Shown one piece after another: positions 5,266-32,690 of a DNA stretch of 64,000 nt. This DNA is from Muribaculaceae bacterium (GTDB lineage Bacteria; Bacteroidota; Bacteroidia; Bacteroidales; Muribaculaceae), in the NCBI GenBank assembly GCA_009775365.1, contig VSPM01000001.1, positions 27,735-91,734 on the forward strand, in the 5' to 3' direction. The translations under genes and the position numbers were made by a program. A model generated the notes under the pieces. That model made no database searches, had not been told where the DNA came from, and saw nothing but the letters and a program-made list of their open reading frames with translations. Position 1 is the stretch's first letter; each line of letters starts with the position of its first letter.

Positions 5266-6159
5266 ATGATTCTGATAACAGGTGCCTCAGGGATGCTTGG
5301 AGGATATGTGAGAGAACAATTCAGCGGAGAAAAAATAGCCACGCTCGGGAGGAGTGAGGGTGACACTTACAGGTGTGACCTGACGAAGGGAGTGCCTGAT
5401 TTTGGGAATGAACGTTTTGATCTGGTGGTGCATTGCGCCGGAACGGAATTGGATTCTGATGCGAGGTCTCTGAATTTTGACGGCACGCGCAGCCTTCTGC
5501 AGGCGTTGGAAGAGAATCCTCCGAAATATTTTGTGTATGTAAGCAGTTGCAAGGTTTATAGCCCGGAAGGTGAGAACCTGGATGAGGAGTCAAACCTGTG
5601 GGCGTTGGGAGAGGCCGGAGAGTCAAAGGCAAGCGCGGAGACGGAGGTGAAGCGGTGGGCCGGAAACAAAGGGACGGTGCTAACGATTATTCGCCCTGCG
5701 AGAATGTTTGGTAAAGGGGTAGGAGGCGACACGCTGCGCCTTTTTAATGATGCCCTAAGCGGATGGTATGTCCATATCAGAGGCAACAATGCCCGGGTAA
5801 GCCTTGTGTCTGCTCTCGATGTGGCGAAAGGGATAAAGATGGTGTATAAAGAGGGTGGTGTGTATAATGCGGCCGACGGAGTCAATCCACGGTTTATTGA
5901 TATGGTGGAGGCAATGACGGCTAATGCCGGGGCCATGAAGCGCATGACGCACCTTCCTGCATCATGGGCGGAATGGGTATGGAGGCTTGGAAGATGGATT
6001 CCGGCAATCGACCGCAACTTGAACCCCAAAGTGGCCGGACAGCGAATGAAAACGCTCACAATCAATGGGGAAAAACTTGCCGAGCATGGCGGATTCAATT
6101 ATTTTGACACGTTGGAGGTTATTTCAAGAACATCAAAAGACTATCCTTATGAAGATTGA
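5266..6159 (+). CDS. NAD-dependent epimerase/dehydratase family protein
   Basis: A Rossmann motif follows ATG 5266 directly (MILITGASGMLGG). The upstream extension of the ORF (from 5212) lacks similarity and was trimmed. Confidence 0.75.
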   Translation: MILITGASGMLGGYVREQFSGEKIATLGRSEGDTYRCDLTKGVPDFGNERFDLVVHCAGTELDSDARSLNFDGTRSLLQALEENPPKYFVYVSSCKVYSPEGENLDEESNLWALGEAGESKASAETEVKRWAGNKGTVLTIIRPARMFGKGVGGDTLRLFNDALSGWYVHIRGNNARVSLVSALDVAKGIKMVYKEGGVYNAADGVNPRFIDMVEAMTANAGAMKRMTHLPASWAEWVWRLGRWIPAIDRNLNPKVAGQRMKTLTINGEKLAEHGGFNYFDTLEVISRTSKDYPYED

Positions 6160-7018
6160 AAAAATACAAAATTTTGCGGGCACATTGGCGGCATCGGCGG
6201 CATCGCTGATAAAAGTGGCGTTGATGTCGAAGGGGGTATCGCCGCAGAGCAGTGCAGGAGAAGGAAGGTCGGTTGTTGTGATGGGTAATGGCCCCTCTTT
6301 GCGCAAGACAATAGATGAGGATGGGGAATGGCTTTGTTCTCATGACCTTATGGCTGTGAACTTCGCGGCTAACACACCGGATTTTTTCAAACTTAGACCT
6401 CGCTTTTATGTTATGGCTGACGGTCACTTTTTCTCGGGTAATGCCACTGACCCTAATGTGGCCCGTTTGTGGGGAGAGCTTGGCAAAGTGAGCTGGAAGA
6501 TGTCTTTATGGGTGCCTTCGAAATGCCGGCATCTCGCAAAAGCCTTGGTGATAGGTAACAGCAATATAGAGTTGAAAACATTCAATCTCACGCCAGTGGA
6601 GGGGGCCGGATGGCTGAAGCGTGTGTTGCTCGATTCAGGACTGGGAATGCCGAGGCCGCGAAATGTGATGATTCCGGCAATAATGGTTGCCATGCGAGAG
6701 GGTTACAAGAAAATTTACCTGTGCGGAGCCGACCACACCTGGACGCAGACCCTGAGTGTGGATGATGAGAACTTTGTGGTCAGTGTTCAGCCCCATTTCT
6801 ATAAGGATAATGATGATGAGCATAAGCGTGTGCGCGCCGCCTATGCCGGATTGCATCTTCATGATGTGCTCGGAAGCATGTCCATAGCGTTTCGCAGTTA
6901 TTGGGAGCTGGCTGACTATGCGCGAAAACGGGGAGTGGAGATAGTGAACGCCACCCCCGGCTCGATGATTGATGCCTTCCCCAGGAGGAGTGTTTGCGGA
7001 AGAGAGCCCTTACGGTAG
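6149..7018 (+). CDS. hypothetical protein, DUF115/MptE-like nucleotide-binding fold (possible glycosyl/sialyl-transferase-like)
   Basis: ATG 6149 overlaps the epimerase stop by 11 nt, suggesting translational coupling. VVVMGNGPSL and IYLCGADHTW resemble DUF115-type proteins. The function is not established. Confidence 0.45.
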   Translation: MKIEKIQNFAGTLAASAASLIKVALMSKGVSPQSSAGEGRSVVVMGNGPSLRKTIDEDGEWLCSHDLMAVNFAANTPDFFKLRPRFYVMADGHFFSGNATDPNVARLWGELGKVSWKMSLWVPSKCRHLAKALVIGNSNIELKTFNLTPVEGAGWLKRVLLDSGLGMPRPRNVMIPAIMVAMREGYKKIYLCGADHTWTQTLSVDDENFVVSVQPHFYKDNDDEHKRVRAAYAGLHLHDVLGSMSIAFRSYWELADYARKRGVEIVNATPGSMIDAFPRRSVCGREPLR

Positions 7019-7020
7019 TA

Positions 7021-7080
7021 AAGTCCTTAAGGTATTTAAAGTCCTTAGGGATATTAATGTCTTTAAAGTCTCTAAGGCTG
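7021..7080. repeat. 9-bp-periodic degenerate tandem repeat (consensus A[AG]GTC[TC]TTA)
   Basis: The units read AAGTCCTTA AGGTATTTA AAGTCCTTA GGGATATTA ATGTCTTTA AAGTCTCTA. They lie immediately 3' of the four-helix-bundle gene. Confidence 0.6.
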
Positions 7081-11758: not shown

Positions 11759-12637
11759 TCATTCGGTGAGTTTTGCAGGGAGCACGGGCATGGCGCCTTG
11801 TTGGGTGCATACGAATGCGGATGTCTCAACTGCTTTGAGATGCGATTCTTCAACGGTGTGTCCTTTGAGGATGTTGGCTATGAAGGCTGCCGTGAAAGAG
11901 TCGCCTGCGCCTACAGTGTCGGCCACCTCCACTTTGGGTGTGGGCTGGAACGAAACGTTGCCGGGGGTGAAGACGTAACTGCCGTTGATGCCGCAGGTGA
12001 GTATGAGCATCTTGAGGTTGTATTTGCCAAGAAGGATCCAGCATTTGTCCTGAAGGTCGATTCCGGGGTATCCGAACATGCGGCTCACTGACACAAGCTC
12101 CTCGTCGTTAATTTTTAGGATGTTGCAACGTTTCATGGAGTTGCACAGGATTTCCTTGTTGTAGAATCCCTGGCGAAGATTGACGTCAAACACCACAAGA
12201 GTGTCGTCGTTTTTGGGCATTTCGTCGAGGAATCGGCTTATGGTTTCTCTCGACACCACGTTGCGTTGTGCAAGAGAGCCGAAGCATACAGCCTTTGTGT
12301 TGCGGGCGAGTTCTGCAAGCTGTTCTGTCCAGGGAATGTTGTCCCAGGCTACGTTCTCCTTGATTTCATATTGAGGGATGCCGGCCTGGTCTATTTCCAC
12401 CTGCACGGTGCCTGTGGGGTAAGGCACCTTCTCAATCATATATTTAATCTCTTTCTTATTGAAGTTCTCAAGCAGTTCATCGCCGAGAGCATCGTCGCCA
12501 ATGGCGCTTACGGCACAGCTGTCGATTCCAAATTGTGACACATGGTAGGCAAAGTTGGCTGGCGCGCCACCTATTTTCTTACCTTCAGGAAGGATGTCCC
12601 ACAGGGCTTCGCCCATTCCTACTACGATTTTGCTCAT
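11759..12637 (-). CDS. PfkB-family carbohydrate kinase, likely fructokinase
   Basis: PfkB signature DTVGAGDSF. Position downstream of GH32 and a sugar permease mirrors the known Bacteroides fructan locus arrangement. Confidence 0.8.
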   Translation of the reverse strand: MSKIVVGMGEALWDILPEGKKIGGAPANFAYHVSQFGIDSCAVSAIGDDALGDELLENFNKKEIKYMIEKVPYPTGTVQVEIDQAGIPQYEIKENVAWDNIPWTEQLAELARNTKAVCFGSLAQRNVVSRETISRFLDEMPKNDDTLVVFDVNLRQGFYNKEILCNSMKRCNILKINDEELVSVSRMFGYPGIDLQDKCWILLGKYNLKMLILTCGINGSYVFTPGNVSFQPTPKVEVADTVGAGDSFTAAFIANILKGHTVEESHLKAVETSAFVCTQQGAMPVLPAKLTE

Positions 12638-12646
12638 GATAAGATT

Positions 12647-13834
12647 TTATTTAATGGTTTTTATTCTAAGTGTGTAATAGAGGAGGAATGCCACTCCCAC
12701 GGTCATCACTGCCACTGCTCCGGCCTGTCCGACAGAGTCGGCGGCATATCCCATGGCCAGGGGGAAGACTGTGCCTCCGAAGAGGCCCATGATCATAAGT
12801 CCTGAAACTTCGTTCTTTTCGTTTGGCGAGGCCATGAGGGCCTGGGAGAAGATTACGGAGAACACGTTGGAATTGCCGAATCCGATTAGGGCGAGAGCCA
12901 CATAAATCGACATAAGGGTGTCGCACGCAAAAAGCATGCCCATGGCTATCAGCATCATTGCCACGCTGAGCCCGAAGAAAATTTTAGGCGACATTGAGCG
13001 CAGGATGAAAGCACCGAGGAAACATCCGGCTGTTCTGAAAATGAAGTAAACGCTGGTGGCGAATCCGGCTTCTTCAAGAGGCAGGCCGAGACGCTCCATG
13101 ATAATCTTGGGGGCGGTGGTGTTGGTGCCCACATCAATTCCCACATGGCACATTATGCCGAGGAAACATAGCAGGATGAACGGGCGGCCAAGGAGGCGGA
13201 GGCATTCGCCGATGCCTGATGCCTTGTCGGGGCGTTCCTCCTCAATGGGAGTGGCCGCGAGCACAGAGATCGACAGGAAGCTCACGATGGCGTATATCAC
13301 GAAGAGCGCTCTCCAGCCCAGCCCGAATGTGGGGATGTAAGTGGTGGCGCCCCAGGCCGCGAGAATCGGAGCGAGGAAAGAGGCGATGGCTTTCACAAAC
13401 TGCCCGAATGTGAGGGTTGAAGCCAGCTTGTCTTCACTGATGAGGTTGGTGACAAGAGGATTAAGAGATGTCTGCATTATGGCGTTGCCTATGCCGAGAA
13501 GCGAGAACGACAGGAGCATGGTGTAGTAGCCGTCGCCTGTGATAGGGAATATGAGCGACACTGTTGTGACCGCGAGACTTATGAGCACAGTCTTTTTGCG
13601 GCCAATCTTGTTCATAAGCATTCCGGTTGGAACGGAGAAGAGAAGGAACCAGAAGAACACGAGCGACGGGAAGAGGTTTGCCTGCGCGTCGGAGAGGCCG
13701 AGGTCTTTTTGCACATAGTTTGAGGCGGTGCCGACGAGATCTACGAATCCCATGGCGAAGAAGCAGAGCATCACGGGGACAATCTGCATTAGAGATGTCT
13801 TTTTCATTGAGGGTATTGCTTGGGTTGCGTCCAC
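12647..13834 (-). CDS. MFS sugar transporter (glucose/galactose-FucP type; probable fructose importer)
   Basis: 395 aa and highly hydrophobic with many predicted helices. It is 10 nt upstream of the kinase and 35 nt downstream of GH32. Confidence 0.8.
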   Translation of the reverse strand: MDATQAIPSMKKTSLMQIVPVMLCFFAMGFVDLVGTASNYVQKDLGLSDAQANLFPSLVFFWFLLFSVPTGMLMNKIGRKKTVLISLAVTTVSLIFPITGDGYYTMLLSFSLLGIGNAIMQTSLNPLVTNLISEDKLASTLTFGQFVKAIASFLAPILAAWGATTYIPTFGLGWRALFVIYAIVSFLSISVLAATPIEEERPDKASGIGECLRLLGRPFILLCFLGIMCHVGIDVGTNTTAPKIIMERLGLPLEEAGFATSVYFIFRTAGCFLGAFILRSMSPKIFFGLSVAMMLIAMGMLFACDTLMSIYVALALIGFGNSNVFSVIFSQALMASPNEKNEVSGLMIMGLFGGTVFPLAMGYAADSVGQAGAVAVMTVGVAFLLYYTLRIKTIK

Positions 13835-13868
13835 GTTGTTATGATTCTAATAGTTGAGGTTTGAGTGG

Positions 13869-15698
13869 TCACTCCAGATTGATGGAGTAGACATTCAGGC
13901 TTACGAGTTTTGCCTCGCCGCCGTCGGCTGAAACCGATAGTGATGAATATGGCTCGTTGGGGAACACGAGGTTGGTCATCACGAATCTGCCGTCGTTGCC
14001 AAACAGCTCGATGCTTGAGCGGTCAATAAATAATCGGAGGCTGATTTTGCCGTTGGTTTCAAAAGTGGGAGCTACGGTCACGGCCGGGAAGTCTTCGCTG
14101 AAGTCTATTATGCCGCTTTTGTTGCGGTTGAACGACATTGTGCGCGCTGCCGCGTCGTATGTCATGATCACTTTGTCGCCTATTTTGTTGGAAAGGGTGA
14201 TGTCTACTGTTTTTGCTTTTTTAGCCTCGAAAGAGAGGTCTATCTCACATATTCCGGGCAGATTGAACAATGATGGGGTTGAATTCAGAGTCTTTGATGA
14301 CTCGTTCACTGTTTTGTTGCCTCTCAGAGCCAAAAGTTCGGGAGAGGGTTTGCTGGAAGCGTAGACCTGGCCGTCTTTCATGCGGAACAGCCCTATTTCG
14401 CGAGGGAGAGTGTTGGCGCTTCTGTATTGAAGGGTTGGCACCTCTGCTGCATATTGCCAGTTGCTCATCCACCCGATCACGGTGCGCCGGTTGTCGGGAG
14501 TGTCGCTCCAGCTCACTGTGGCATAGTGGTCTTTGCCGAAGTCAAGCCATTTGGTAGGCACGTTTCCGGAAGCGTCGGTGTCGGCAGTGAATTTTTTGCC
14601 ATCGAAATCACCTATGAAATATTGGGTGGCGCTGCCGCCGAAGATTCCGCCCGGGTTAAGATTGCAGAGAAGCACCCATTTTTTTGTTTTGGTTCCTTCC
14701 ACAGGAAGTTCAAAGAGATCGGGACATTCCCACACTCCATCCTGAGCGCCGAGCCCTTTGCCAAAACTGCTTTGGAGAGTCCAGTTGATGAGGTCGGGCG
14801 AGGTGAAGAAAAGCATCTCATGGTCGAGAGCGTGAGCCAGCACGAGATTCCATTCACCGGTTTTTTCGTTCCAGAACATATTCGGGTCGCGTGCCTCGCT
14901 TTCGAGAGTGATCACAGGGTTGCCGGGATAGATGTTGAAAGTTGTTCCATTGTCATCGCTTGAGGCGAAGCTCTGCATCTGGCTTGTGCCTGCTGATGTG
15001 TACATGGCTATCACTGCATCCTTGCCGAATCCGGAAGTGTTATTCCTGTCGATGGCGCAGCTTCCGCTGAATACTGCTCCCAGCCCGTTGGGGCGTATTG
15101 CTATAGGCATATGTTCCCAGTGAATGAGGTCGGAAGACTTTGAGTGTCCCCATGTCATGTTCTGCCATTTTGAACCGTAGGGGTTATACTGGTAGTAAAG
15201 ATGCCATTCGCCGTCTTTGAAAAACATTCCGTTCGGGTCGTTCATCCATCCGTAGAGAGGGGTGTGGTGATAGGCGGGACGGAATTTAGATTCGCGGTCG
15301 CTTACATCGAAAGTGTCAGACAGGGAAATCCCTTTCCAACAGCAGTCCTCTTTTGCTTCGCGCACTGTGCTTCTGCCCTGGGGAGTGACCACGTCGAGGA
15401 TGACATCTTTCCCTTTGTAGCGTGAAAGGTCGAAAGGCACAGTGTAGTCTGTTTTTGAGCGGGCGAGCTTCACATATATTGTCTCGGCAATGTTGCCGTC
15501 TACGAGCACATTTATGCGGGCGTCGTCGTTAGACTCCTGAACCGGGAGGATAAGATATTTTCCCTCTCCGGTGACGCGCACCAGAGTGTTGTTTACTCCG
15601 AGATGGTCAATCTGCACGCCTTCGGCAGCAGAGAGTGTGGAGGAGGCAGATGCCCCAATCATTATCAAGGCTGTCAGGCCTGAGGTTATCTTTTTCAT
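13869..15698 (-). CDS. glycoside hydrolase family 32 (beta-fructofuranosidase / exo-fructanase), secreted
   Basis: Signal peptide, then the GH32 catalytic motifs WMNDPNG, RDPNMFW and WECPDLF, plus a C-terminal beta-sandwich region. Confidence 0.9.
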   Translation of the reverse strand: MKKITSGLTALIMIGASASSTLSAAEGVQIDHLGVNNTLVRVTGEGKYLILPVQESNDDARINVLVDGNIAETIYVKLARSKTDYTVPFDLSRYKGKDVILDVVTPQGRSTVREAKEDCCWKGISLSDTFDVSDRESKFRPAYHHTPLYGWMNDPNGMFFKDGEWHLYYQYNPYGSKWQNMTWGHSKSSDLIHWEHMPIAIRPNGLGAVFSGSCAIDRNNTSGFGKDAVIAMYTSAGTSQMQSFASSDDNGTTFNIYPGNPVITLESEARDPNMFWNEKTGEWNLVLAHALDHEMLFFTSPDLINWTLQSSFGKGLGAQDGVWECPDLFELPVEGTKTKKWVLLCNLNPGGIFGGSATQYFIGDFDGKKFTADTDASGNVPTKWLDFGKDHYATVSWSDTPDNRRTVIGWMSNWQYAAEVPTLQYRSANTLPREIGLFRMKDGQVYASSKPSPELLALRGNKTVNESSKTLNSTPSLFNLPGICEIDLSFEAKKAKTVDITLSNKIGDKVIMTYDAAARTMSFNRNKSGIIDFSEDFPAVTVAPTFETNGKISLRLFIDRSSIELFGNDGRFVMTNLVFPNEPYSSLSVSADGGEAKLVSLNVYSINLE

Positions 15699-16020: not shown

Positions 16021-19000
16021 ATGAAAAAACTCTGCGAATCGATTTTTATATTTTTCTCAATTGTTTTGCTTGCATCATGCTCCGAAGAGAGGGTATATAA
16101 GATAGGGGTGTCGCAATGTAGCCAGGATGACTGGCGAGAAAAAATGAATGATGAAGTCAAGCGAGAAATCATGTTTCATGAGGATGCCGTGGTTGAGATT
16201 CGTTCTGCCGATGACAACAATCAAAAGCAAATAGAGGATATAAAATATTTTGCCGACAATGGATTCGACATTCTGATAGTCTCTCCCAACGAGGCTGCTG
16301 AGCTTACGCCAGTAATAAAGGAGGTTTATGAAAACGGTATGCCGGTGATTATTTTTGACCGTAATATCAATGGCGACACCTATACGGCCCGAATTGGTGT
16401 GGATGACGAAGGTCTCGGGCGCTCTGCGGCTCACTATGCGGTGCATATGAAAGGGAAAGATGCAAAAGCCATCGAGATTTTCGGGCTCAGAGGGTCTACT
16501 CCTGCCGAAGGAAGACACCAGGGGTTTTCTAAGGAATTTGCCAGGGAGGGTGGACATTTGCTTGCAAGCGTGGCGGCAAACTGGAATAAAGAGGATGCAG
16601 TGCCTGTTGTAGATTCACTTCTGAACATATATCCTGATGTAGATCTGATTTTTGCCCACAACGACCGCATGGCTATAGGGGCATCGGAAGTGGCGCGGCG
16701 CCACGGGCGCGGTGATATAACCATAATAGGCATTGACGCTGCCCCAAACATTGGAATCAAGGCTGTGGCCGACAGCGTGATTGATGCCACTTTCCTTTAT
16801 CCTACCGAGGGGCACAGGCTTATTCAGACCGCATTGAAGATCTTAAAGGGAAAACCTTACGAACGAGAGGTGATATTGCCTGTGTCGTCGGCTGTTGACC
16901 TTTCAAATGCCGACATACTGCTTCTGCCGAAGGAAGACACCAGGGGTTTTCTAAGGAATTTGCCAGGGAGGGTGGACATTTGCTTGCAAGCGTGGCGGCA
17001 AACTGGAATAAAGAGGATGCAGTGCCTGTTGTAGATTCACTTCTGAACATATATCCTGATGTAGATCTGATTTTTGCCCACAACGACCGCATGGCTATAG
17101 GGGCATCGGAAGTGGCGCGGCGCCACGGGCGCGGTGATATAACCATAATAGGCATTGACGCTGCCCCAAACATTGGAATCAAGGCTGTGGCCGACAGCGT
17201 GATTGATGCCACTTTCCTTTATCCTACCGAGGGGCACAGGCTTATTCAGACCGCATTGAAGATCTTAAAGGGAAAACCTTACGAACGAGAGGTGATATTG
17301 CCTGTGTCGTCGGCTGTTGACCTTTCAAATGCCGACATACTGCTTCTGCAAAATGAGACTCTTAATGAGGAAACCGGCAAGATGAGGCTGCTTAAAAGAA
17401 GAATCGACGACTATTGGGCGCAGCATTCATCGCAGACATCGCTGTTTTATGCCAGCATTGCGATAATAATCCTGCTGTTTGGAGTGTTTTTTCTGTTGCT
17501 CAGGGCATTCTGGCAGCATCGGCGTCATCAGGCGATGCTTATGGATCAGAACCGGCTGCTGGAAGAAGAGCGGGACAAACAGAAAATGCTCAATGAGAAA
17601 CTTGAGGAGGCCACACAGTCTAAACTGATGTTTTTCACCAATGTCTCGCATGACCTTCGGACTCCGCTCACTCTTATAGCCGAGCCTGTGGCTCAGCTTG
17701 CAGAGGCTGACAATCTCACGCGGCAGCAAGCCACATTGATAAAGATTGCCGATAAGAATGTAAGAATACTACGCCGTCTTATTAATCAGATTCTTGATTT
17801 TCGCAAGTATGAGAATGGCAAACTCGACTTGAAACTTTCGGAAGTGGATTTTGGAAAGGCTATTGAAGAATGGATGGAATCGTTTCGTGCCGTGGCTCGC
17901 AAGCGCGACATAAGACTCGCGCTCGATGCTCCTGATGGGGAATCTGTAAAGATGGCTCTTGATTCTGAAAAGATTGAGCGTGTGTTTTTCAATCTTGTGT
18001 CGAACGCTTTTAAATACACTCCCGACAATGGCACTATAACAGTGGCGTATCATATTGATGGAGATATGCTTAGTTTAAGTGTTGCTGACACCGGCGAAGG
18101 CATAAGTGAACGAGATCTGGGAAATATATTCGATCGTTTCTTTCAGGTTGACCGTGTTCATCCCAAAGGGTCGGGAATAGGATTGTCGCTTGCCAAGGCG
18201 TTTGTGGAACTTCATGGCGGCTCGATCTCGGTGGAAAGTGAGGTCAACAAGGGCTCTGTGTTTACGGTGAAACTTCCTGTTATACACGTTTCGGAGGTGG
18301 CTTCTGAGGTGGAGCCTGTAAATTCAGGAGCCGATGTCGAGGCGGAGCTGGGGAGCATAGAATCAGCATTTGAAATGGAAGCGGAGAAGCCTGTTGTGCT
18401 CGTGATTGACGATAACCGCGACATACAGAAACTTGTGGGTGAACTTCTTGCGGCTGATTATAATGTGGTAGTGGCTTCTAATGGGGCTGAGGGTGTGAAG
18501 AGGGCCGTGAAATATGTGCCCGACCTTGTGATTTGCGATGTGATGATGCCTGTGATGGATGGCCTGGAGTGTTGCCGCAGGCTCAAAGAAGAGGTGTCTA
18601 CTTCACACATACCTGTGTTGATGCTGACTGCATGCTCTATGGATGAGCAGAGAGTGCAAGGCTACGAAAGCGGAGCAGATGGCTATCTTGCGAAGCCGTT
18701 CAGTGCTAAAGTGCTGTTGTCGAGATGTTCGAGCCTTATTGCCAATAGAAAACGCATTAAAGAACTGTGGCAAAGCGCGGTGAATGCTGTTGCTGAGAAG
18801 CAGAGGGAGGCAGTGAAAGAGGAAAAACAAAAGGCGGACAAGCCGGTGGCCTCTGACATAGATAATCAGTTCTATAACCGGTTTATCGAGATTTTCATGG
18901 CCGAGATAGGTAATTCGGAGTTGACGGTAGACAGCCTGGCATCTAAAATGGGTTTGGAGCGCACACAGTTCTATCGCAAGATAAAGGCATTGACTAATTA

Positions 19001-19190
19001 TTCTCCGGTTGAGCTTATGCGCAACCTAAGGCTGAAGCAGGCTCGTGTGCTTGTCACCACCACCGACAAGACAATAAGTGAAATTGGCTATGACATGGGT
19101 TTTTCCACTCCGGCCTATTTTACTAAATGTTATCGCGAAGCCTTCGGCGAGACACCCACTGAGACTCGCACCAAGCTTGGCTCCAGATAA
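16021..19190 (+). pseudogene. hybrid two-component system sensor kinase/response regulator (periplasmic sugar-binding domain + HisKA/HATPase + receiver + AraC HTH), frameshifted by a 422-bp internal tandem duplication
   Basis: The gene is split into ORFs 15919-17034 and 16980-19190. The break lies at the duplication junction (ADILLL then out of frame). Length minus 422 equals 2748 nt, or 916 codons. The domains are collinear with the intact paralog at 23229-25979. Confidence 0.8.
16503..17346 (+). repeat. perfect direct tandem duplication, 2 x 422 bp (16503-16924 and 16925-17346)
   Basis: The two copies read identically base for base by eye. Antisense ORFs 16615-16815 and 17037-17237 are identical and offset by exactly 422 nt. 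ORFs 16434-16790 and 16820-17212 share the same start offset of 422 nt and an identical N-terminal ~96 aa. Confidence 0.9.
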
Positions 19191-19291: not shown

Positions 19292-19915
19292 TTATGTCGG
19301 CAGATAGACCTGTTGCTCTGACGATTGAGTCCACATCCCGGTCAACCCCCTATGGTGTCCTGAGGATACTGCGCTACAATAGTCATGATACAGTTTCATG
19401 TCGCTTTCATAGCGTCGGCGATCTTCTTTGGAAAGATTCTCCATGCCGGCCACCTCTGCCACTCGTTTGAAAATGGGGTTTCTGTCTGCAAACGGTATTG
19501 ACACTACAGGCATATACTCGTAGTTCCATTTCCGAGGCTTGCTCTGTTCGGTTATGGCCCGTGACGCATAATTCAATACGCGTTCTGTGAACCAGTCGTG
19601 GTATAGGTTCTGCATTTCCACGATAAACCGTCGCTTGTCAGATGTCTCGCAGTGCAGGTCAAAAGCCACGGAGCCTTCTTCCTCCTGTTCGCATATTTTC
19701 TCTTTGTCATGAAAATCCAGGCTGACAATTGGTGCGTCACCATCCCCCTCAAGGATTGCATTGAGCAGAGAAATCAGAATATCTTTTGAAGATTCTCTTC
19801 CGAATAGGATTTTAAATCCTGGGTCCGTAGTAGGGTTTATAAATTGCCCGGGTGTGGTATATTTTCCTATTGTCAGCCATTGTTTCAAAGGTTTTGTCTC
19901 ATCTTGCAAATACAA
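19292..19915 (-). CDS. PD-(D/E)XK nuclease-family transposase-like protein (Rpn/PDDEXK_2 type), probably truncated or degraded at the C-terminus
   Basis: The N-terminal region (INPTTDPGFKILFGRESSKDILISLLNAIL, FDLHCE, FIVEMQN) is typical. The protein is shorter than usual and its C-terminus is atypical. Confidence 0.6.
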   Translation of the reverse strand: MYLQDETKPLKQWLTIGKYTTPGQFINPTTDPGFKILFGRESSKDILISLLNAILEGDGDAPIVSLDFHDKEKICEQEEEGSVAFDLHCETSDKRRFIVEMQNLYHDWFTERVLNYASRAITEQSKPRKWNYEYMPVVSIPFADRNPIFKRVAEVAGMENLSKEDRRRYESDMKLYHDYCSAVSSGHHRGLTGMWTQSSEQQVYLPT

Positions 19916-19976: not shown

Positions 19977-20669
19977 GTGGAGGCGGATTATTGGGTGTTT
20001 AAAGATGTGACGGGCCTCAAAGGGAGAAATATAAGAATAGCGGCTCCCGGACGACAGATGCAAGGGATTGCGTATAGCCTTGACAATGGGCGTACTTTCA
20101 CAAAATACAAGGACAACCCGGTGATCGACAGTAAGGAAACATGGGATAGTGGTGACACCCGCGACCCGAAGGTTTTTAAATACGAAAATCATTGGGTGTT
20201 GGTTCTCAATGAACGCGACGGACATTCTATCTACAATATCCCGGCCTCCGACGGACGCCGGATACAGATAGGGTGGAGCAGAATTGGTCATCCGGGAATG
20301 AATTTTAATGGCATGATGCTGTTTCCTGTCGAGTTGACATTGCGCACAACTAAAGACGGGCCGAGACTTGCCGGAGTGCCTGTCAGGGAAGTGGAGGCAT
20401 TGTGTCGCAGCATAGGGAAATGGAATAACCTCTCACAAGAGGAGGCAAACGAAGCGTTAAAGGCATTTTCAGGTAAAGATTGCCTGAGAGTGCGATTCAC
20501 AGTGGAACTTATGTCCGATGTCTATATTGACCGCACTTCGGCGGAGGTGTTTGTGGAAGACGGTTTGTTTTCTTACTCTCTTCCCCGTAACGTGTCAGAC
20601 AAAAATGCGCACGAAATCACTTTCGGAGGTAATCGCCTGAAGATGAAAATCTTGAGTTTCTTGACATAG
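19977..20669 (+). pseudogene. eroded GH32 relic
   Basis: It retains YSLDNGRTFTKYKDNPVI, the RDPKVF motif, GRRIQIGW and a C-terminal DRTSAEVF-like strand. It lacks the WMNDPNG nucleophile block and the EC acid/base block, so there are large internal and 5' deletions. Confidence 0.7.
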
Positions 20670-20946: not shown

Positions 20947-21831
20947 GTGGCCGATGCTGCCGGGCAGTATCCCCGCAATGTGGAATTGATGAGCAAGGAT
21001 GGCTATGGGTTGCTTTCTCCCACTATCTATCAGCATAACGGCAAGACCATAGCATTGGGAATAGTTCCCGACAAGATTTCAACGGAAGACAACTGCCGTC
21101 TCGGCTGGGCGCACACATATTCCTTCCCTCGCGAATGGAGCCTGAGCGCAAGCGGCGAACTTATCCAGAAGCCATATGATGGCTTGCGCTCTCTTCGTTC
21201 TGACGTGGCATATTCGGGTGCTGACGAAGAGATTTCCGGAGTCAAGGATCTGTCGCCGGTGTCGGGGCGAAGAATAGAATTGCTCGGCAGATTTGAAATT
21301 GGCGACTCTACATTCGGATTCAAATTCTTTAAAAGTGCTTCCGGACAGGCGTCGGTGTCTTATAACCGCTCGAGCAATGAACTCACGGTAGATTTTACAG
21401 GTCTTCGCCGGCTTGTTAACGACAACGGCAGCTATAATGGCATATACCGTTGCACACTTCCCGAGCGTCCGGAGGCCGGAAGCGAAATGCTTTTGAACGT
21501 GTTTATCGACGGCTCTATAGTTGACATATTTGTGAATGACCGCTGGGCTACCTCCATCCGGGTTTATCCGTCGGATGAAGATGCCGACGGAGTAGAGGCA
21601 TTCTGCGACGGCACGGTAAAAGCACGCGAGCTCAAAGCATGGAGACTCGATTCCGGCGGCGGAGCCGGAATCGGCTCAATCCCCGGTGATGAGGGGTTTC
21701 ATTCCGACAAAGTGAATGTAAGCGCAATCGACGGCACGTTGATTAAACATAATGAGAGAATGGCCGAGGCTCTCGACGGGCTTAAAAAAGGTGTGTATGT
21801 TGTGAACGGCTGTAAAGTGATTGTGAAATAA
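20947..21831 (+). pseudogene. 5'-truncated GH32 (last propeller blade + beta-sandwich) with a T9SS C-terminal sorting domain
   Basis: It begins mid-domain (GWAHTYSFPREWSL, LIQKPYDGLRSLR, VFIDGSIVDIFVNDRW). It ends in a T9SS-type tail (GVYVVNGCKVIVK). It has no signal peptide and no N-terminal catalytic motifs. Confidence 0.7.
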
Positions 21832-21905: not shown

Positions 21906-22349
21906 TTGTGATATTGTGGCATATGGAGTTTACTTATTCCGGAATTAGAACCGAGGCGGATGTGTGGTGTCGTGAATTTTGCATAGGGTATGGCTACGGG
22001 CTGAAGCATGAGTACGTCTACAACGAGCGTGACCTTGGCATAGAGAAGGTGACATTCTTCTATGAGAATGACCAGTGGGTGCCTAATGCAAAGGGAGAAT
22101 ATGAATATGACGACGCCGATAATATCGTCGACGAGGTGCTTTATTATCCTCTTGAAGGCGACTGGCAGCCGTATGCACACAATACTGCCACATGGGACAA
22201 TATCAATCGCCAGGCAAGCATCGAAAGCCATGAGTGGAACGGCTTGGACTGGGTTGGTGTGGCAAAAGAGGACTTGAATATTATAATGATTATTCCGACA
22301 AACTCACTTATCTTGGCAGATGGTATTGGATCAAAGAAGAGAATTAGAG

Positions 22350-22381
22350 AGGCTTCCCAAAACCGGCGGGAAGCCTTTTTG
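22350..22381 (+). terminator. rho-independent-type terminator located inside the 436-aa ORF 21908-23218
   Basis: aggcttccc (22350-22358) pairs with gggaagcct (22368-22376), followed by ttttt. Confidence 0.6.
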
Positions 22382-22429
22382 TTGGTATTTTGTTGGCGCA
22401 TTCCCATTTTTTTATTAACTTGCATCGAA

Positions 22430-23218
22430 ATGTTGGTAATAGCGTTCATACTGGTTCTTTCATGCCTGATTCCTGCCCCGGCAATGCGCGCGGAGGCAAG
22501 ACAGCCCGATTATGCCAAGATGGCAGAGTCGCCGGCGAGAGATTTGTTCACTAAAGCCAATGAATATCAGCAGATGAACGATGTAGACACGGCTATGGCC
22601 TATTATCTCTATACCATAGGGGCTTTTGACATCAATTCATCAGAGGAGAATCAGCTTATTTGTGCCAAGGCATATAATGAATTCGGGAAGGCGTATTTTA
22701 ATTTCGGTCATTATTCAAAAGCCTTCGACTCTTTTGCCAATGCCATTAAAATATGTGAGGCCAATGGTTTCAGCAGCCTTTTGCCTCATATCTATAATAA
22801 TCTCGGAAGCATCTATTGCACATGGAACGACCGGGAGCAAGGTATTCATTATTTCCAGAAGGCATTTGAAATCACGGATTCTGCGTCACAGCCGGAATTA
22901 TACCGCAAGCTTCTTATCAACATGATCGGCGCCGAGTGTGAGAATGCCAATGTCAAGGCGGGAGTAAACAGCAAATATGTTTCAAAGGTTATTAATGAGG
23001 CATATGGATGTAATTTCAGAGCGTTTATAAATGAAATCCGAATACGAGAGGCGCAACGCAGGCTGCTTGACACCGACAGGTATGGCAGTTTCACCATAAA
23101 GGCTATTGCCGAAAGCGTTGGCTATAAATCTCATGCCAACTTCATATTGTTGTTCAAGAAATATGTAGGCATCTCGCCCTCGCAATATCAGAAAATGGCA
23201 ACAGAAGACAAAGAATAA
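22430..23218 (+). CDS. truncated TPR + AraC-type HTH regulator (paralog of 46945-48573, internally deleted)
   Basis: The start MLVIAFILVLSCLIPAPA lies after the terminator. The TPR-like segment (NNLGSIYCTWNDREQGIHYFQKAFEI) joins directly to the second half of an AraC HTH (GVNSKYVSKVI, IAESVGYKSHANFILLFKKYVGISPSQY). The TM segment and linker seen in the full-length paralog are missing. Confidence 0.55.
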   Translation: MLVIAFILVLSCLIPAPAMRAEARQPDYAKMAESPARDLFTKANEYQQMNDVDTAMAYYLYTIGAFDINSSEENQLICAKAYNEFGKAYFNFGHYSKAFDSFANAIKICEANGFSSLLPHIYNNLGSIYCTWNDREQGIHYFQKAFEITDSASQPELYRKLLINMIGAECENANVKAGVNSKYVSKVINEAYGCNFRAFINEIRIREAQRRLLDTDRYGSFTIKAIAESVGYKSHANFILLFKKYVGISPSQYQKMATEDKE

Positions 23219-23228
23219 ATATGTTTCA

Positions 23229-25979
23229 ATGAAAAGAGTCTATTCATTTCGGGGTCTTATAGCTGTAGTGTTTTGCTTGTTTCTGACCGCAGGATGCGGA
23301 GGAAATACGGAAAAGAGATACAGGATTGGAGTGTCGCAATGCAGCGGCGACTATTGGCGCGTGAAGATTAACGACGACATTATGCGGGAGCAGCTTCTGC
23401 ATGACGACGTGGAGGTGGAATTTCGTAATGCCGATAGCGACAATAATAGGCAAATTAGCGATATACGTTATTTTATGGATAATGGCTTCGACCTGATAAT
23501 GGTGTCGCCTAATGAGACGGAAGAGCTCACCCCGATAGTGAAAGAGTCTTATGAAAAGGGCATCCCTGTTGTCACTTTCGACCGCCGCATTGATGGCGAC
23601 TCATTCACGGCCCATATGGAGGTTGACAATTACGAGCTTGGAAAGTCTGTGGCCGGGTATGCACGCTCACACATTCAAAAGCCTTTGAGAGTAATAGAGA
23701 TACAAGGCCCTACAAGCGCATCTCCTGCCCGAAGAAGGCATGAGGGATTTGCCGACGCTATGAAAGATTATGACGATTCAGAGATTCTTGCAAGTGTGTA
23801 TGGCAACTGGGATGACGGGCTTTCCGAGTGTCTTGTCGATTCGCTGTTGAAAATATACCCCGAAACCAATCTGATATACGCCCACACCGACCATATGGGG
23901 ATAGGGGCTTCGCGTGCCGTCCGGAAAAACGGGCGAAGGGATATAGCTGTTATGGGCATAGACGGGTTCCCCGAAATCGGCATCAAGGCGGTGAAAGACA
24001 GCGTGCTTACGGCATCATTCCTTTATCCGTCAGAAGGAGAGCGGCTTTTGCGGATAGGCATGGCAATCCTTAAAGGGGAGCCATATGAGAAAATAACCCA
24101 GGTGCCTCCATTGTCGCCTATAGACTTGTCGAACGCCGACATACTTATTGCTCAAGAGAAGCTCCTCACCGGAGAAACCGAGAAAATCAACTTTCTTCGC
24201 GGGGCTCTTCATGAGTATTGGATCAGGCATTCCGCCCAGACAATGCTTCTGTATGCTTTCGTCATAATCCTTGTTCTTCTGGCAGGGGTATTGTTCCTTC
24301 TCCTGAGGGCTGTAAATGTGCATAAGCGCCATAAGGGGGTTCTATTGCAGAAAAATACTCAGCTTGAAGAAGAGAAGGAGAAACAGCAGGAACTTTACGA
24401 CAGGCTCAGAGAGGCCACGCAATCGAAACTTATGTTCTACACTAATGTGTCGCACGACTTGCGCACTCCGCTCACTCTTATTTCTGGCCCTGTGGAGGAG
24501 GTGGCCAGGGATGAATCCCTCAGCCGGCGCGACAGGCAATTGATGCAGATTGCTCAGAAGAATGTGAGCATTCTCCGGAGGCTTATCGACCAGATTCTTG
24601 ACTTCAGGAAGTATGAGAACAACAAGACCGACCTTCATCTCTCGGAGGTGGATTTCCCTGCCCTGCTGAGAGAATGGGCCGAGGCGTTCAAAGAGGCGGC
24701 CAATAAGCGCGACATTCGTCTCGCGGTTAATATTGCGCCTGTGGCCGACCCGTATGTGGGTGTTGACGTGGAGAAAATGGAGCGTGTGTTTTTCAATCTT
24801 ATGAGCAACGCTTTCAAGCACACTCCCGACAACGGAAAGATAAGCGTGGCGTATGTTTCAGACGGCACGAAATTCACTTTTTCTGTAAAAGACAATGGCG
24901 AGGGTATTTCAGAGGAGGATTGCCGTCATATTTTCGACCGTTTCTTTCAGGCTGATAAAGTCAATCCCAAGGGTTCCGGAATAGGTCTTGCTTTGACAAA
25001 AGCGTTTGTCGAGCTTCACGGCGGGGAAATTTCTGTTGACAGTGAGAAAGGGAAGGGGAGTGAATTCAAGGTGGCTCTCCCGGTGCGTCATTGCGGCAAC
25101 AAGGTGGAAGCCCCACAATCGAGAATCACATCGTCAGACATAGACATAGAATTGTCGCCTATAGAAAAAGATGGAGAGGAGTTTGACTCTAAAAAGCCGT
25201 TGCTGCTCGTTGTGGACGACAACAGAGACATACATAAACTTATAGGCGCTCTTTTGGGTGCAGATTATAATGTGATATATGCCTCTGACGGGCAGCAGGG
25301 TGTGAAGATGGCCGTGAAATATGTGCCGGACCTCGTGGTTTGCGACGTGATGATGCCCGTGATGGACGGCATGGAATGTGTGAAACGCATAAAAAGCGAG
25401 ATCACCACATCCCATATTCCTGTGCTTATGCTCACGGCATGTTCTCTCGACGAGCAGCGTGTGGAGGGGTATGACAACGGCGCCGACGGATACCTCCCCA
25501 AGCCATTTGGGGGAGATGTGCTTGCATCGCGATGCCGCAATCTCCTCATGAACAGAAAAAGGATAAAGAGCATCTATGGAAAAAGCGCTATTGCGGAGAA
25601 TGAAAAGGATGGCAAGGGCCGCGCTATCCCCCGCACAAAAGTGGCTCCCAACGATGTGGAAAGTGATTTCTACACACGATTCATGAAGATTGTGGAGAGC
25701 CGTATGTCTGACCCGAAACTGAGCATCGAGGAGATTGCCGGTGAAATGGGGTTGAGCCAGTCGCAGTTCACGAGGAAAATAAAGGCTCTTGCAAACTACA
25801 CTCCGGTCGAGATTATCCGCACAGTGAGGCTTCAAAGGGCAAAGACAATTCTCAGCTCCACCGAAAAGACCGTGAGCGAGATCTCTTTTGAGGTCGGATT
25901 CACGTCGCTTGCGTATTTCTCTAAATGCTATAAGGAGGAGTTCGGAGAGTCGCCATCCGCCATAAGAGGGAAGAAGTGA
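23229..25979 (+). CDS. hybrid two-component system sensor kinase/response regulator with periplasmic sugar-binding domain (fructan-PUL type)
   Basis: 916 aa: signal/lipobox, a PBP1-like domain (YRIGVSQCSGDYWR), a TM segment, the H-box SHDLRTPL, an ATPase region (GSGIGLALTKAFVELHGG), a receiver (DDNRDI, CDVMMPVMDG) and a C-terminal AraC HTH. Confidence 0.9.
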   Translation: MKRVYSFRGLIAVVFCLFLTAGCGGNTEKRYRIGVSQCSGDYWRVKINDDIMREQLLHDDVEVEFRNADSDNNRQISDIRYFMDNGFDLIMVSPNETEELTPIVKESYEKGIPVVTFDRRIDGDSFTAHMEVDNYELGKSVAGYARSHIQKPLRVIEIQGPTSASPARRRHEGFADAMKDYDDSEILASVYGNWDDGLSECLVDSLLKIYPETNLIYAHTDHMGIGASRAVRKNGRRDIAVMGIDGFPEIGIKAVKDSVLTASFLYPSEGERLLRIGMAILKGEPYEKITQVPPLSPIDLSNADILIAQEKLLTGETEKINFLRGALHEYWIRHSAQTMLLYAFVIILVLLAGVLFLLLRAVNVHKRHKGVLLQKNTQLEEEKEKQQELYDRLREATQSKLMFYTNVSHDLRTPLTLISGPVEEVARDESLSRRDRQLMQIAQKNVSILRRLIDQILDFRKYENNKTDLHLSEVDFPALLREWAEAFKEAANKRDIRLAVNIAPVADPYVGVDVEKMERVFFNLMSNAFKHTPDNGKISVAYVSDGTKFTFSVKDNGEGISEEDCRHIFDRFFQADKVNPKGSGIGLALTKAFVELHGGEISVDSEKGKGSEFKVALPVRHCGNKVEAPQSRITSSDIDIELSPIEKDGEEFDSKKPLLLVVDDNRDIHKLIGALLGADYNVIYASDGQQGVKMAVKYVPDLVVCDVMMPVMDGMECVKRIKSEITTSHIPVLMLTACSLDEQRVEGYDNGADGYLPKPFGGDVLASRCRNLLMNRKRIKSIYGKSAIAENEKDGKGRAIPRTKVAPNDVESDFYTRFMKIVESRMSDPKLSIEEIAGEMGLSQSQFTRKIKALANYTPVEIIRTVRLQRAKTILSSTEKTVSEISFEVGFTSLAYFSKCYKEEFGESPSAIRGKK

Positions 25980-26049
25980 GCGCCGCCCGCCTGTAGGTGT
26001 GCGTGGCTATAAAAAATTGGTCGTCATTATAACAAATGTTGATAATATA

Positions 26050-26090
26050 AAATGCAAACTGCTGAGGTTACGTGGTTTGCATTTTTATAT
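26050..26090 (+). terminator. hairpin after the second sensor gene
   Basis: aaatgcaaac (26050-26059) pairs with gtttgcattt (26076-26085), followed by a T-rich run. Confidence 0.45.
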
Positions 26091-26255
26091 AAATCCGAAT
26101 GGCGGTTCAGGCAGGCGATTATAAAAAAATCCGCAATGGTTTTAACAATAAAGGAGTCGGGTAAATTATGATAGCGTAGACAACAAATATTATATCACGC
26201 CCGTACGCACGGCATTAACTTTGCAGCAGATAATTTAACTAAAACAAACAATAAC

Positions 26256-29200
26256 ATGAAAAAAGGAATCCTCAGCGCATTGATGCTTCTGATTATGGCA
26301 ATCACGGCGCATGCACAGGAAATCACTGTGCAAGGGACGGTAATTTCACGGGCTGACGATGAGCCGCTGATCGGGGCCACAGTTCAGTGTGAAGTCACCA
26401 AACAAGGTGTGGCCACCGATATCGATGGCGGGTTTAGCCTCACAGTTCCTGATGGCTCGGTTCTTAAAATCTCTTATGTGGGCTATCAGACAGTGGAAGT
26501 GAAGGCGGAGCCTCAGATGACTATCTATATGGATGAAGACGCCGGTCTTCTCGACGAGCTTGTGGTGGTGGGTTATCAGACCGTCCGCAAGGCCGACCTC
26601 ACCGGAGCGGTGTCGGTGGTTTCAACCAAGTCGCTTGAAACCTCGTCAGACAGCGACCCCATGCGCGCTCTGCAAGGCAAGGTTCCGGGAATGACAGTTA
26701 CAGCAAACGGTTCGCCCGCAGGCACCGGCTCGGTCAGAATCCGTGGTATCGGCTCTTTCAATGCGTCACAAGACCCTCTCTTTGTAATTGACGGCGTGCC
26801 CACCACAGCCACTCTGAATTCTCTCAACATGAACGACATTGAGAGTATGCAGGTGCTTAAAGACGCAGCCTCAGCTTCAATCTATGGTTCGCGTGCGGCC
26901 AACGGCGTGATCATCATCACCACGAAGAAGGGTAAGAACTCCGGGAAGGTGAATGTGAGCTTCTCTGCCAATTTCACTACACAGTTCTATTCTTCTCAAT
27001 CGAAGATGAAGCTCCTCAACACTCCGGAATATGCAAAGGCGATGGCTCAGGCAGCGCTCAACGACGGCCTTGACCCTGTGGCCTATGCTTCAAGCTACGG
27101 CCTTAACCTTAATGCTGCAAGCGGCTATCCAATCTCTGTTTATAATATTGCCACCGGCCAGTATCAGGACTACACTGTGAACGGCTATTACGACGGCTAT
27201 ATCAATAACAAGCGCACAATGCTTATGTCTAACACCGACTGGCTTGACGAAATTTCACGCACAGGCTTCTCTCAGCATTATGACGCTTCGGTTTCTACCG
27301 CTTCCGACAAGGGCACGGCATTCTTCTCTATCGGTTATAAGAGAACCGACGGTATCCTCAAATATACAAACTTCGAGAATATCGCCGCCCGTATGAATGC
27401 TTCTTACAATATCTCTCCGGTTGTGACAGTAGGCGAGAATTTTACTCTTACATATACTGACCAGGTTGACTGCCAGCCGTTGGAGAATGCGCTGAAGATG
27501 CCGTCGTCAGTGCCTGTGTTTGAAACTGACGGCACAACATATGCCGGCCCTGTAGGGAGCATGGCCGACCGCCAGAACCCTCTCCGCGAACTCGCTTTCA
27601 ATAAAGACAACGCCCTGAATGTGTGGAGGCTTTTCGGAAATGCGTATATCGACATCAAGCCGGTGAATGGCCTGGTGCTTCGTTCAAACTTCGGTCTTGA
27701 CTATGATGCCGCTTTCATCCATTCCTACAACTACACTTTCCATAGCGACATCGTCAATAACGACACCAACTCCACCACGCTTTCGCAGGCAAACGACTCA
27801 AAGTGGACTTGGACTAACACTGCCAATTATAATTTCAATCTCTGGAACGACCATAATTTCACTGTGCTTGCCGGCATGGAGATGTTCCGCCAGAGCCGCA
27901 TAGATTTCTCGGCCTACAACGAGAACTATGACATTGAAACTCCCGATTATATGTATCCCGATGCCTCATCAGGCGTTGAACGTGCCACAGGCAATAAGTC
28001 GGCCTACGCCCTTGTTTCATTCTTCGGCAAGATTGACTATAACTGGCGCGACCTCCTTCTTGCGTCGTTCACAATCCGCCATGACGGATCATCGCGTTTC
28101 GGCAGCAACAACCGCTACGGCACATTCCCTGCCGCCACTCTCGGCTATCGCCTTTCAGAAAACATCAACAAGTCGTGGCTCGACGACCTCAAGATTCGTC
28201 TCTCATGGGGCAAGACCGGTAACCAGGCCATCTCCAACACCGCCCGCTACGCTCTTTATGTGGCAGACTATGGCAGCGACCGCGTGACGTCTACCGCCTA
28301 CGACCTCCTTCTCCAGCAGAGCGGCATATTCCCCTCAGGTTATTATGCAAGCCAGACCGCAAACCCGAATTTGAAATGGGAGACCACAATCCAGTATAAT
28401 GCCGGCATCGACTACGGTTTCCTTGGCAATCGCCTCACCGGCACATTCGACGCCTACATCAAGGATGTGAAAGACATGCTTATCATCCCTGCCTATCTCG
28501 GCTCTATGGGTGAGGGTGGCGCCTCATGGCTCAACGGCTCGTCGCTTCGCAACTGGGGTATGGAATTCCAGGTTGGATGGCGTGATGAACTTGCGTGCGG
28601 CTTCGGCTACAAGGCGGCGCTTAACTTCGATTTCTTCCGCAATCGCGTGACATATCTTCCTTCCACCACAACCGGCTCATATGTGCACACCACAACCGAA
28701 AACCTCGTTCAGTCGCGTCGTCCGTTCGGCTCAATCGTGGGCTATGTGTTCGACGGCCTGTTCCAGAGCCAGGAAGAGGTGCTTGCCTATGGTCAGGACA
28801 ACGCCCGTGTGGGCGGCATGAAATATGCCGACCTTAATGGCGACGGCAAAATCACCGCTGATGACCAGACCTGGATTTTCAATCCGGTGCCCGATCTTTC
28901 GTTTGGCCTGAATGTAGAGCTCAGCTATAAGAATTTCGATTTCCAGATGTTCTGGCAGGGTGTGCTCGGACAGGATGTCTACAACAATCAGAAATTCCAG
29001 AACGACTTCTGGAGCGTGACCGATGCCGGCAGCAACAAGGGTGTGCGTGTGCTCGACGCATGGCTGCCGAATGTGAACGCATCGTCTACAATCCCGATGC
29101 TCACCACCAACAACAAGGGCGACGAGGGGCGCGCGTCATCATACTTTGTGGAAAACGGCTCTTACGCCAAGCTCCGCACCCTGCAGATCGGCTATAACCT

Positions 29201-29372
29201 TCCTGAAAACGTGCTGTCGAAACTTCGCATGAGCAAGGCGAGAGTGTATGTGTCAGGCCAGAACCTTCTCACCATCAAGAGCAGCAGCCTCACATGCACC
29301 GACCCTGAGAATCCCAACTGGGCATATCCTATCCCGACCTCGCTCTCTTTCGGCTTGCAGGTAGATTTCTAA
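26256..29372 (+). CDS. susC: SusC/RagA-family TonB-dependent outer-membrane transporter
   Basis: 1038 aa: signal peptide, a carboxypeptidase-regulatory-like N-terminal domain (ITVQGTVIS, DEPLIGATV), a plug (SVRIRGIGS), and a C-terminal barrel ending in F. Confidence 0.95.
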   Translation: MKKGILSALMLLIMAITAHAQEITVQGTVISRADDEPLIGATVQCEVTKQGVATDIDGGFSLTVPDGSVLKISYVGYQTVEVKAEPQMTIYMDEDAGLLDELVVVGYQTVRKADLTGAVSVVSTKSLETSSDSDPMRALQGKVPGMTVTANGSPAGTGSVRIRGIGSFNASQDPLFVIDGVPTTATLNSLNMNDIESMQVLKDAASASIYGSRAANGVIIITTKKGKNSGKVNVSFSANFTTQFYSSQSKMKLLNTPEYAKAMAQAALNDGLDPVAYASSYGLNLNAASGYPISVYNIATGQYQDYTVNGYYDGYINNKRTMLMSNTDWLDEISRTGFSQHYDASVSTASDKGTAFFSIGYKRTDGILKYTNFENIAARMNASYNISPVVTVGENFTLTYTDQVDCQPLENALKMPSSVPVFETDGTTYAGPVGSMADRQNPLRELAFNKDNALNVWRLFGNAYIDIKPVNGLVLRSNFGLDYDAAFIHSYNYTFHSDIVNNDTNSTTLSQANDSKWTWTNTANYNFNLWNDHNFTVLAGMEMFRQSRIDFSAYNENYDIETPDYMYPDASSGVERATGNKSAYALVSFFGKIDYNWRDLLLASFTIRHDGSSRFGSNNRYGTFPAATLGYRLSENINKSWLDDLKIRLSWGKTGNQAISNTARYALYVADYGSDRVTSTAYDLLLQQSGIFPSGYYASQTANPNLKWETTIQYNAGIDYGFLGNRLTGTFDAYIKDVKDMLIIPAYLGSMGEGGASWLNGSSLRNWGMEFQVGWRDELACGFGYKAALNFDFFRNRVTYLPSTTTGSYVHTTTENLVQSRRPFGSIVGYVFDGLFQSQEEVLAYGQDNARVGGMKYADLNGDGKITADDQTWIFNPVPDLSFGLNVELSYKNFDFQMFWQGVLGQDVYNNQKFQNDFWSVTDAGSNKGVRVLDAWLPNVNASSTIPMLTTNNKGDEGRASSYFVENGSYAKLRTLQIGYNLPENVLSKLRMSKARVYVSGQNLLTIKSSSLTCTDPENPNWAYPIPTSLSFGLQVDF

Positions 29373-32687: not shown

Positions 32688-32690
32688 TGA

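Follow-up and report, generated by a model that had tools for sequence, protein, structure and literature searches.

The window analysed here, a stretch of 64,000 nucleotides (nt) from a Muribaculaceae bacterium (assembly GCA_009775365.1, contig VSPM01000001.1), contains a fructan utilization region in which the gene of a hybrid two-component sensor (HTCS), HTCS1, is split by a perfect tandem duplication. Two copies of a 422-nt unit lie directly adjacent and head to tail within the coding sequence, and a comparison of the two revealed 0 mismatches. Tandem Repeats Finder describes the array with a period of 422, 2.0 copies, 100% matches and a score of 1696, and it is the sole long repeat within the window. 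A perfect repeat of this length cannot be a chance product. The features of the interrupted gene, in window coordinates, are the following:

16503-16924, plus strand: first copy of the 422-nt unit, corresponding to gene nt 483-904 and approximately to residues 162-302 of the sensor domain
16925-17346, plus strand: second copy, identical to the first; the novel junction lies at 16924/16925
16502-16505, plus strand: CTGC microhomology at the left boundary, repeated at the junction (16924-16927) and at the right boundary (17346-17349)
16021-17034, plus strand: 5' fragment of HTCS1 (fragment A), 337 amino acids (aa), with a signal or lipobox-like N-terminus, a BT1754-like periplasmic sugar-binding domain (native residues 1-302; Pfam Peripla_BP_4) and 35 out-of-frame residues
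16992-19190, plus strand: 3' fragment of HTCS1 (fragment B), 732 aa from GTG 16992 in an open reading frame (ORF) that opens at 16980, with the last ~105 residues of the sensor domain, the transmembrane (TM) segment, HisKA, HATPase_c, the receiver and the AraC helix-turn-helix (HTH)

As 422 is not a multiple of three (3 × 140 + 2), the reading frame shifts by +2 after residue 302, and the sensor loses its connection to the TM, kinase, receiver and AraC output. Translated from ATG 16021, the protein reads ...SNADILLL, continues out of frame as PKEDTRGF... and halts 35 codons further on at the stop codon 17032-17034. The second copy is read once more, now in frame, in the ORF 16980-19190, which runs to the natural stop of the gene; Pfam recognizes in fragment B the tail of Peripla_BP_4 followed by HisKA, HATPase_c, Response_reg and HTH_18/AraC. 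In a phmmer search against the PDB, the sensor domain matched BT1754 (2x7x_A) with E=2.1e-81 over query residues 26-333. Together with the Peripla_BP_4 match this identifies it as a sensor with a type-I periplasmic-binding-protein fold homologous to BT1754. The duplicated unit represents the C-terminal part of this binding domain, ahead of the membrane segment. Deletion of one copy in silico yields a gene of 2748 nt encoding 915 aa plus stop that is collinear with, and 54% identical to, its paralog HTCS2 (23229-25979; 916 aa plus stop). The continuous chain from sensor to AraC HTH is thus missing from the window but present in the ancestral single-copy allele, P0223 (915 aa). An earlier, sequence-only reading of this DNA had described the two identical copies, the short ctgc microhomology at their boundaries, the frameshift with the stop at 17034, the downstream ORF with the TM, kinase, receiver and AraC domains and the collinearity with the paralog. 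Direct comparison, Tandem Repeats Finder, translation and Pfam bear out all of this. Its length of 2748 nt for the restored gene is likewise correct, but the 916 codons it gave include the stop codon.

Several properties of the array characterize it as a microhomology-mediated tandem duplication. The copies abut without added or lost bases (422/422), identity at a period of 422 nt spans positions 16502-17349 (848 nt, or 2 × 422 + 4), and a short identity flanks the unit also in the unduplicated allele: both CTGC sites are found in L090, a single-copy sister genome, and in others. The novel junction reads ...ACTGCTTCTGC up to 16924 and CGAAGGAAG... from 16925, also written as ATACTGCTTCTGC followed by CGAAGGAAGAC. 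Among virtual 422-nt duplications in this window, a junction microhomology of at least 4 nt occurs at 1.7% of positions and in 0.4% of distinct events. No repeat or recombinase site was found at the boundaries of the unit beyond the 4-nt CTGC, and perfect tandem duplications with a period longer than 41 nt did not occur in 1.8 Mb of related loci.

The sequence-only reading had called for a comparison with sister strains, and this comparison proved to be informative. The protein obtained by removal of one copy is P0223, the commonest allele of the species, which occurs on 183 contigs in NCBI, JGI, Logan and ENA and is annotated as MEZ3532052.1, 'MAG: substrate-binding domain-containing protein [Muribaculaceae bacterium]'. 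The sister genome L090 (GCA_041387065.1, contig JAIAXK010000045.1) equals the window minus one copy over 20,597 of 20,597 bp, with no mismatch and no gap. Two further sisters, L098 (Logan SRR11344328) and L099 (GCA_948981875.1), show 0 differences to the single-copy window over 12,673 bp each. To obtain a sample that is unbiased with regard to the state of HTCS1, loci were fetched via three neighbouring genes, the 609-aa GH32, the Rpn gene and the 1038-aa SusC. HTCS1 was uninterrupted and single-copy in all 19 neighbour-anchored loci from accurate assemblies, with 915 aa in 18 of them and truncation by the contig end in L099. Overall, intact HTCS1 is found on ~250 public contigs. The duplication is therefore the only difference between the window and its nearest sister genomes and, because the sister genome is identical once one copy is removed, it is either private to this strain and very recent or an artefact. 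Three readings had been offered from the sequence: a very recent inactivating duplication, a reversible ON/OFF lesion or an assembly artefact. The first is the best supported, as removal of one copy returns the commonest allele and leaves 0 differences to L090 over 20.6 kb.

One assembly in this comparison has to be read with care. In L102 (GCA_018263615.1, contig VZQX01002413.1) nearly every gene of the locus is fragmented and the alignment to the window contains 28 gap openings over 20 kb. Its truncated proteins should not be taken as biological pseudogenes.

The products of the junction were also searched for in a collection of 15 billion proteins. The 337-aa frameshifted product (P0121) has an exact match on two NCBI contigs, the longest of which measures 112,552 bp, and the 732-aa partner (P0222, from GTG 16992) has an exact match on one NCBI contig of 112,552 bp. 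Because P0121 occurs on two contigs and P0222 on one, the second contig cannot simply duplicate the first, and a second, non-identical contig or assembly seems to carry the same junction.

Taken together, we favour with moderate confidence the view that one strain of a Muribaculaceae species from the mouse gut has undergone a real and very recent microhomology-mediated tandem duplication, which affects the sensor domain of its BT1754-type HTCS1. It may have arisen in replication through slippage of the nascent strand or a template switch between two CTGC sites 422 nt apart, by which gene nt 483-904 would have been copied head to tail. The frameshift after residue 302 cuts the periplasmic sugar-binding domain from the TM segment, kinase, receiver and AraC output. 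BT1754 of Bacteroides thetaiotaomicron binds monomeric fructose, is needed for the induction of the fructan polysaccharide utilization locus (PUL) and requires ligand binding by its periplasmic domain for signalling (PMC3404733). Homology to BT1754 predicts that HTCS1 likewise binds fructose and is required for induction of its locus. Because signalling of the BT1754 type depends on periplasmic ligand binding, the duplicated allele would most likely be null for fructose-dependent induction. In fission yeast, microhomology-mediated tandem duplications arise genome-wide, and the frameshifts they cause inactivate genes (Dan et al. 2021, PNAS, PMC8639346). Reversion to the exact wild type via replication slippage and recombination was ~100 times more frequent there than formation, and earlier work on such duplications in E. 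coli is among the studies cited in that paper. The event in HTCS1 resembles those in yeast in its head-to-tail arrangement, its pair of short microhomologies, its location within an ORF with a resulting frameshift and a wild type that has one copy between the pair. It differs in that it comes from the assembly of a gut Bacteroidota rather than from a selection experiment and in that its 422-nt unit is longer than most described there.

A number of points weigh against this interpretation. The duplication is known here from assembled sequence alone, so an error of assembly or scaffolding is possibly its source. A search of 185,579 species-representative genomes with a 36-mer across the junction gave no match, and neither this 36-mer nor a 24-mer was found in the JGI metagenome contigs. 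In addition, the start codons available to fragment B near the stop of fragment A make some ligand-independent activity possible, and the regulon of HTCS1 in this species is a prediction.

If the duplication were an artefact, only one copy would be real. The second would then have been introduced by an assembler that passed through a graph loop, by joining overlapping contigs without trimming, or already when the library was prepared, through a chimeric read or a template switch. Such an error would equally produce perfectly identical copies and perfect identity of the remaining sequence to single-copy sisters, and the rarity of the duplicated allele would fit as well. The empty junction searches in the genome and JGI metagenome collections agree with this explanation, as does the finding that none of nine versions of the junction product with alternative starts is present in the 15-billion-protein collection. 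However, a short-read assembler would normally collapse a tandem duplication, not produce one, and a path with two copies requires reads that contain the junction. A length of 422 nt is neither a k-mer size nor a usual overlap length. The 4-nt microhomology is of the kind left by biological slippage (p ~0.004-0.017), although a template switch in the polymerase chain reaction could mimic it. The window is otherwise clean, with 0 gaps and 0 mismatches against L090, and the presence of a junction-derived protein on two NCBI contigs that are not plain copies of each other also speaks against an error. We therefore regard an artefact as unlikely, and think that the duplication is quite probably a real event.

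Given a real duplication, the two fragments could in principle have acquired a new function. Fragment B, produced from an internal start, would signal without ligand and fragment A would be a free periplasmic fructose-binding protein, so that the fructose genes would become constitutive or rewired. GTG 16992, GTG 17022 and ATG 17091 are in frame for fragment B and flank the stop codon at 17034, which would allow coupling or re-initiation of translation. Moreover, the TM, HisKA, HATPase, receiver (REC) and HTH parts are intact in fragment B and nearly the whole binding domain is kept in fragment A. On the other hand, fragment B has no signal sequence and ~100 residues of partial sensor domain would need to be exported for correct insertion into the membrane, and signalling by BT1754 needs periplasmic ligand binding (PMC3404733). 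Such a gain of function appears very unlikely to us, and we consider a loss of function the more plausible outcome of the duplication.

A search for other disrupted alleles of HTCS1 covered the 90% cluster of N-terminal fragments and is therefore biased. Two of them look credible. A nonsense mutation, K144* (AAA>TAA), accompanied by 9 other substitutions on a long-form background (defined below), occurs on three Logan contigs including L103 (SRR22378364; allele at 3876-6623) and L104 (SRR22378367; allele at 2909-5656). In L105 (Logan SRR12961056; 6001-6647) HTCS1 departs from the wild type after codon ~207 into the unrelated sequence TCAGTAGATGACAAAAATTGAATTTAT, after which the contig ends. 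The product of this break is found on three Logan contigs, and its sequence suggests an insertion of a repeated element. Apparent splits near codons ~791 and ~808, which would detach the AraC HTH, were seen in the pairs P0002 and P0232 (Logan, 25-kb contig) and P0007 and P0235 (NCBI, 5.5-kb contig); these could be real frameshifts or sequencing errors. Three further products with internal Met starts (P0122, P0126 and P0128) were considered as HTCS1 inactivations and discounted as probable sequencing errors; the contig of P0128 has 240,937 bp, as in the fragmented L102. Disrupted alleles amount to a few percent against ~250 intact ones, a frequency that ordinary mutation-selection balance could explain. 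It would also agree with the mutational hotspots reported for HTCS genes of B. thetaiotaomicron in mice (bioRxiv 10.1101/2025.06.24.661302). The situation described there is similar in that HTCS that regulate PULs show disruptive variants at the level of strains, here the duplication, K144* and the probable insertion. It differs in that the variants reported there are polymorphisms from deep population sequencing in another species, in a text without mention of duplications, whereas our data come from scattered public assemblies and a biased search.

Could the duplication be part of a switch? Precise loss of one copy is a property of all tandem duplications and no dedicated switch is needed for it. 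Because the two copies of the unit provide 422 nt of perfect homology, precise reversion of HTCS1 is possible: RecA-dependent recombination or slippage could, as a generic process, drop one copy and restore the exact P0223 wild type. In a gut population of at least 10^9 cells such revertants would always be present. A selected contingency switch goes further than this, as the gain and precise loss of the 422-nt unit within the ORF would toggle HTCS1 OFF and ON when the supply of fructans or fructose changes. The precise and frequent reversion of tandem duplications (PMC8639346) would suit such a switch, and so would the occurrence of wild-type and duplicated alleles on otherwise identical backgrounds and of other disruptive HTCS1 alleles in public assemblies (K144* in L103 and L104 and the break at codon ~207 in L105). 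A precedent is capsule phase variation in Streptococcus pneumoniae, which according to the account of Waite et al. (2001, 2003) in PMC4022640 is driven by duplications within ORFs. In the capsule genes cap3A, cap8E and tts, as summarized there, a tandem duplication within the ORF turns the gene off and its precise loss would restore it, as would be the case for HTCS1. Unlike here, many different duplications recur per pneumococcal gene at high frequency and with a visible phenotype in that account, while we found one event and no recurrence.

A phase-variable locus would be expected to show recurrent duplications in independent lineages or samples, and for HTCS1 a single junction product is known, on 2 NCBI contigs compared to ~250 intact ones. 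Of the other lesions, one is a nonsense mutation and one probably an insertion; neither is a revertible duplication, and both fit plain loss of function. There were 0 disruptive alleles among the 19 neighbour-anchored loci from accurate assemblies. A 4-nt microhomology is furthermore a weak and unspecialised substrate, with no repeat or recombinase site beside it at the boundaries. We see no sign of a dedicated or selected switch, and the existence of one is very improbable in our judgement. The proposal of a reversible ON/OFF lesion holds in the generic sense that a tandem copy can be lost precisely; of a recurrent or population-wide switch we found no sign. Searches of the genome and JGI metagenome collections did not return the junction. 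The related idea that the duplication is a selected, reversible OFF state for bet-hedging, in which subpopulations silence a costly fructose response and regain the exact wild type when fructans return, we consider slightly more doubtful still. If true, it would be the first contingency mechanism of such kind described for a PUL regulator of Bacteroidota.

The consequences of the loss of HTCS1 depend on its surroundings, which had already been remodelled. Homologs place the locus in the Muribaculaceae, although a search of genome contigs for related loci gave nothing above 77% aa identity among the matches listed. The Pfam matches of the neighbouring genes confirm the fructan-locus context that the sequence-only reading had assigned to the sensor. 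The features around HTCS1 are:

11759-15698, minus strand: divergent fructose-utilisation operon with GH32 (13869-15698), an MFS transporter (12647-13834) and a PfkB fructokinase (11759-12637), identified by Pfam
19292-19915, minus strand: short Rpn/PDDEXK_2 nuclease-transposase gene, present in all strains with 195-207 aa, about half of the Pfam model
19977-20669, plus strand: N-terminal fragment of a GH32, an old pseudogene piece present in long- and short-form strains
20911/20912: deletion junction at which 7,840 bp are lost relative to long-form strains, from the alignment to L095 and gene maps
20947-21831, plus strand: 294-aa C-terminal remnant of the 787-aa GH32 that the deletion truncated
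21908-34314, plus strand: second fructan locus, intact, with a TPR-AraC gene (21908-23218), HTCS2 (23229-25979), SusC (26256-29372), SusD (29376-31139), a surface glycan-binding protein (SGBP) with DUF4960, levan-binding (31146-32687), and GH32 (32800-34314)

The order of GH32, MFS and PfkB genes is identical in all sister loci. Between the GH32 N-terminal fragment and the TPR-AraC gene, long-form strains (L001, L091, L094-L096, L100, L103 and L104) harbour genes for a SusC of 1012 aa, a SusD of 558 aa, a levan-binding SGBP of 489 aa and a GH32 of 787 aa, so that both sensors stand in front of a fructan PUL of their own. These genes, in the case of the GH32 its 5' part, are deleted in the window, which represents the short form, as do most assemblies seen; both forms are common among the public assemblies of the species. 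The ends of the 7.8-kb deletion were checked for an origin between repeats and showed no self-homology. Since the deletion is common to many strains with an intact HTCS1, it predates the duplication. The prior loss of SusC, SusD, SGBP and GH32 beside the sensor had been overlooked by the sequence-only reading. All strains seen have the Rpn/PDDEXK_2 gene and the GH32 N-terminal fragment in the interval that separates HTCS1 from the next PUL, and the two look like old, conserved remnants.

In the short-form lineage HTCS1 probably controls only the divergent GH32/MFS/fructokinase operon, which is its probable remaining target. The cost of losing HTCS1 is probably small, because the adjoining PUL genes are already deleted and HTCS2 with a complete SusC/SusD/GH32 locus is intact. 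The gene neighbourhood supports the comparison with BT1754, as GH32, fructokinase and sugar-transporter genes are found in the divergent operon upstream and the second PUL lies downstream. HTCS1 has the same type of periplasmic-binding-protein (PBP) sensor as BT1754 (E=2e-81 to 2x7x), its ancestral form has the order PBP, TM, HisKA, HATPase, REC and AraC HTH in a single polypeptide, and it stands beside GH32, MFS and fructokinase genes as BT1754 does with BT1757-1759 (PMC3404733). In contrast to B. thetaiotaomicron, the Muribaculaceae host possesses two paralogous sensors (54% identical) that head two tandem fructan loci. In the window, moreover, HTCS1 is split by the duplication, the adjoining SusC, SusD, SGBP and GH32 are deleted, and its ligand and regulon are predictions.

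The split HTCS1 adds a further case of a familiar type of mutation in a familiar type of regulator and does not constitute a new system. If the duplication is real, it provides a clean example from nature of how a microhomology-mediated tandem duplication knocks out a carbohydrate sensor of a gut commensal, for which a wild-type sister genome with otherwise identical sequence is available. Within a single species the fructan locus is visibly being remodelled, as the 7.8-kb PUL deletion, the nonsense allele and the probable insertion show, and it could serve to trace diet-driven within-host evolution in laboratory mice. For annotation purposes, the two HTCS1 ORFs should be read as one recent pseudogene rather than two genes.

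Further observations concern other parts of the window. A scan of the entire window with Rfam at the gathering threshold gave no matches. The TPR-AraC gene (21908-23218) lies 10 nt upstream of HTCS2 and is split in two ORFs (261 aa and 141 aa) in the accurate sister assembly L083. A 9-nt tandem repeat, GTCTTTAAG, with ~7 copies and 83% matches occupies positions 32690-32762 between the SGBP and the last GH32 of the intact PUL, and an 18-nt repeat is located at 7008-7066. Finally, positions 3351-4228 harbour an insertion sequence of the IS4/IS5 family with 40-nt imperfect inverted ends (3351-3390 and 4189-4228) and a 257-aa DDE transposase (3442-4215), and this transposase is fragmentary in some sister assemblies (L083, L085).

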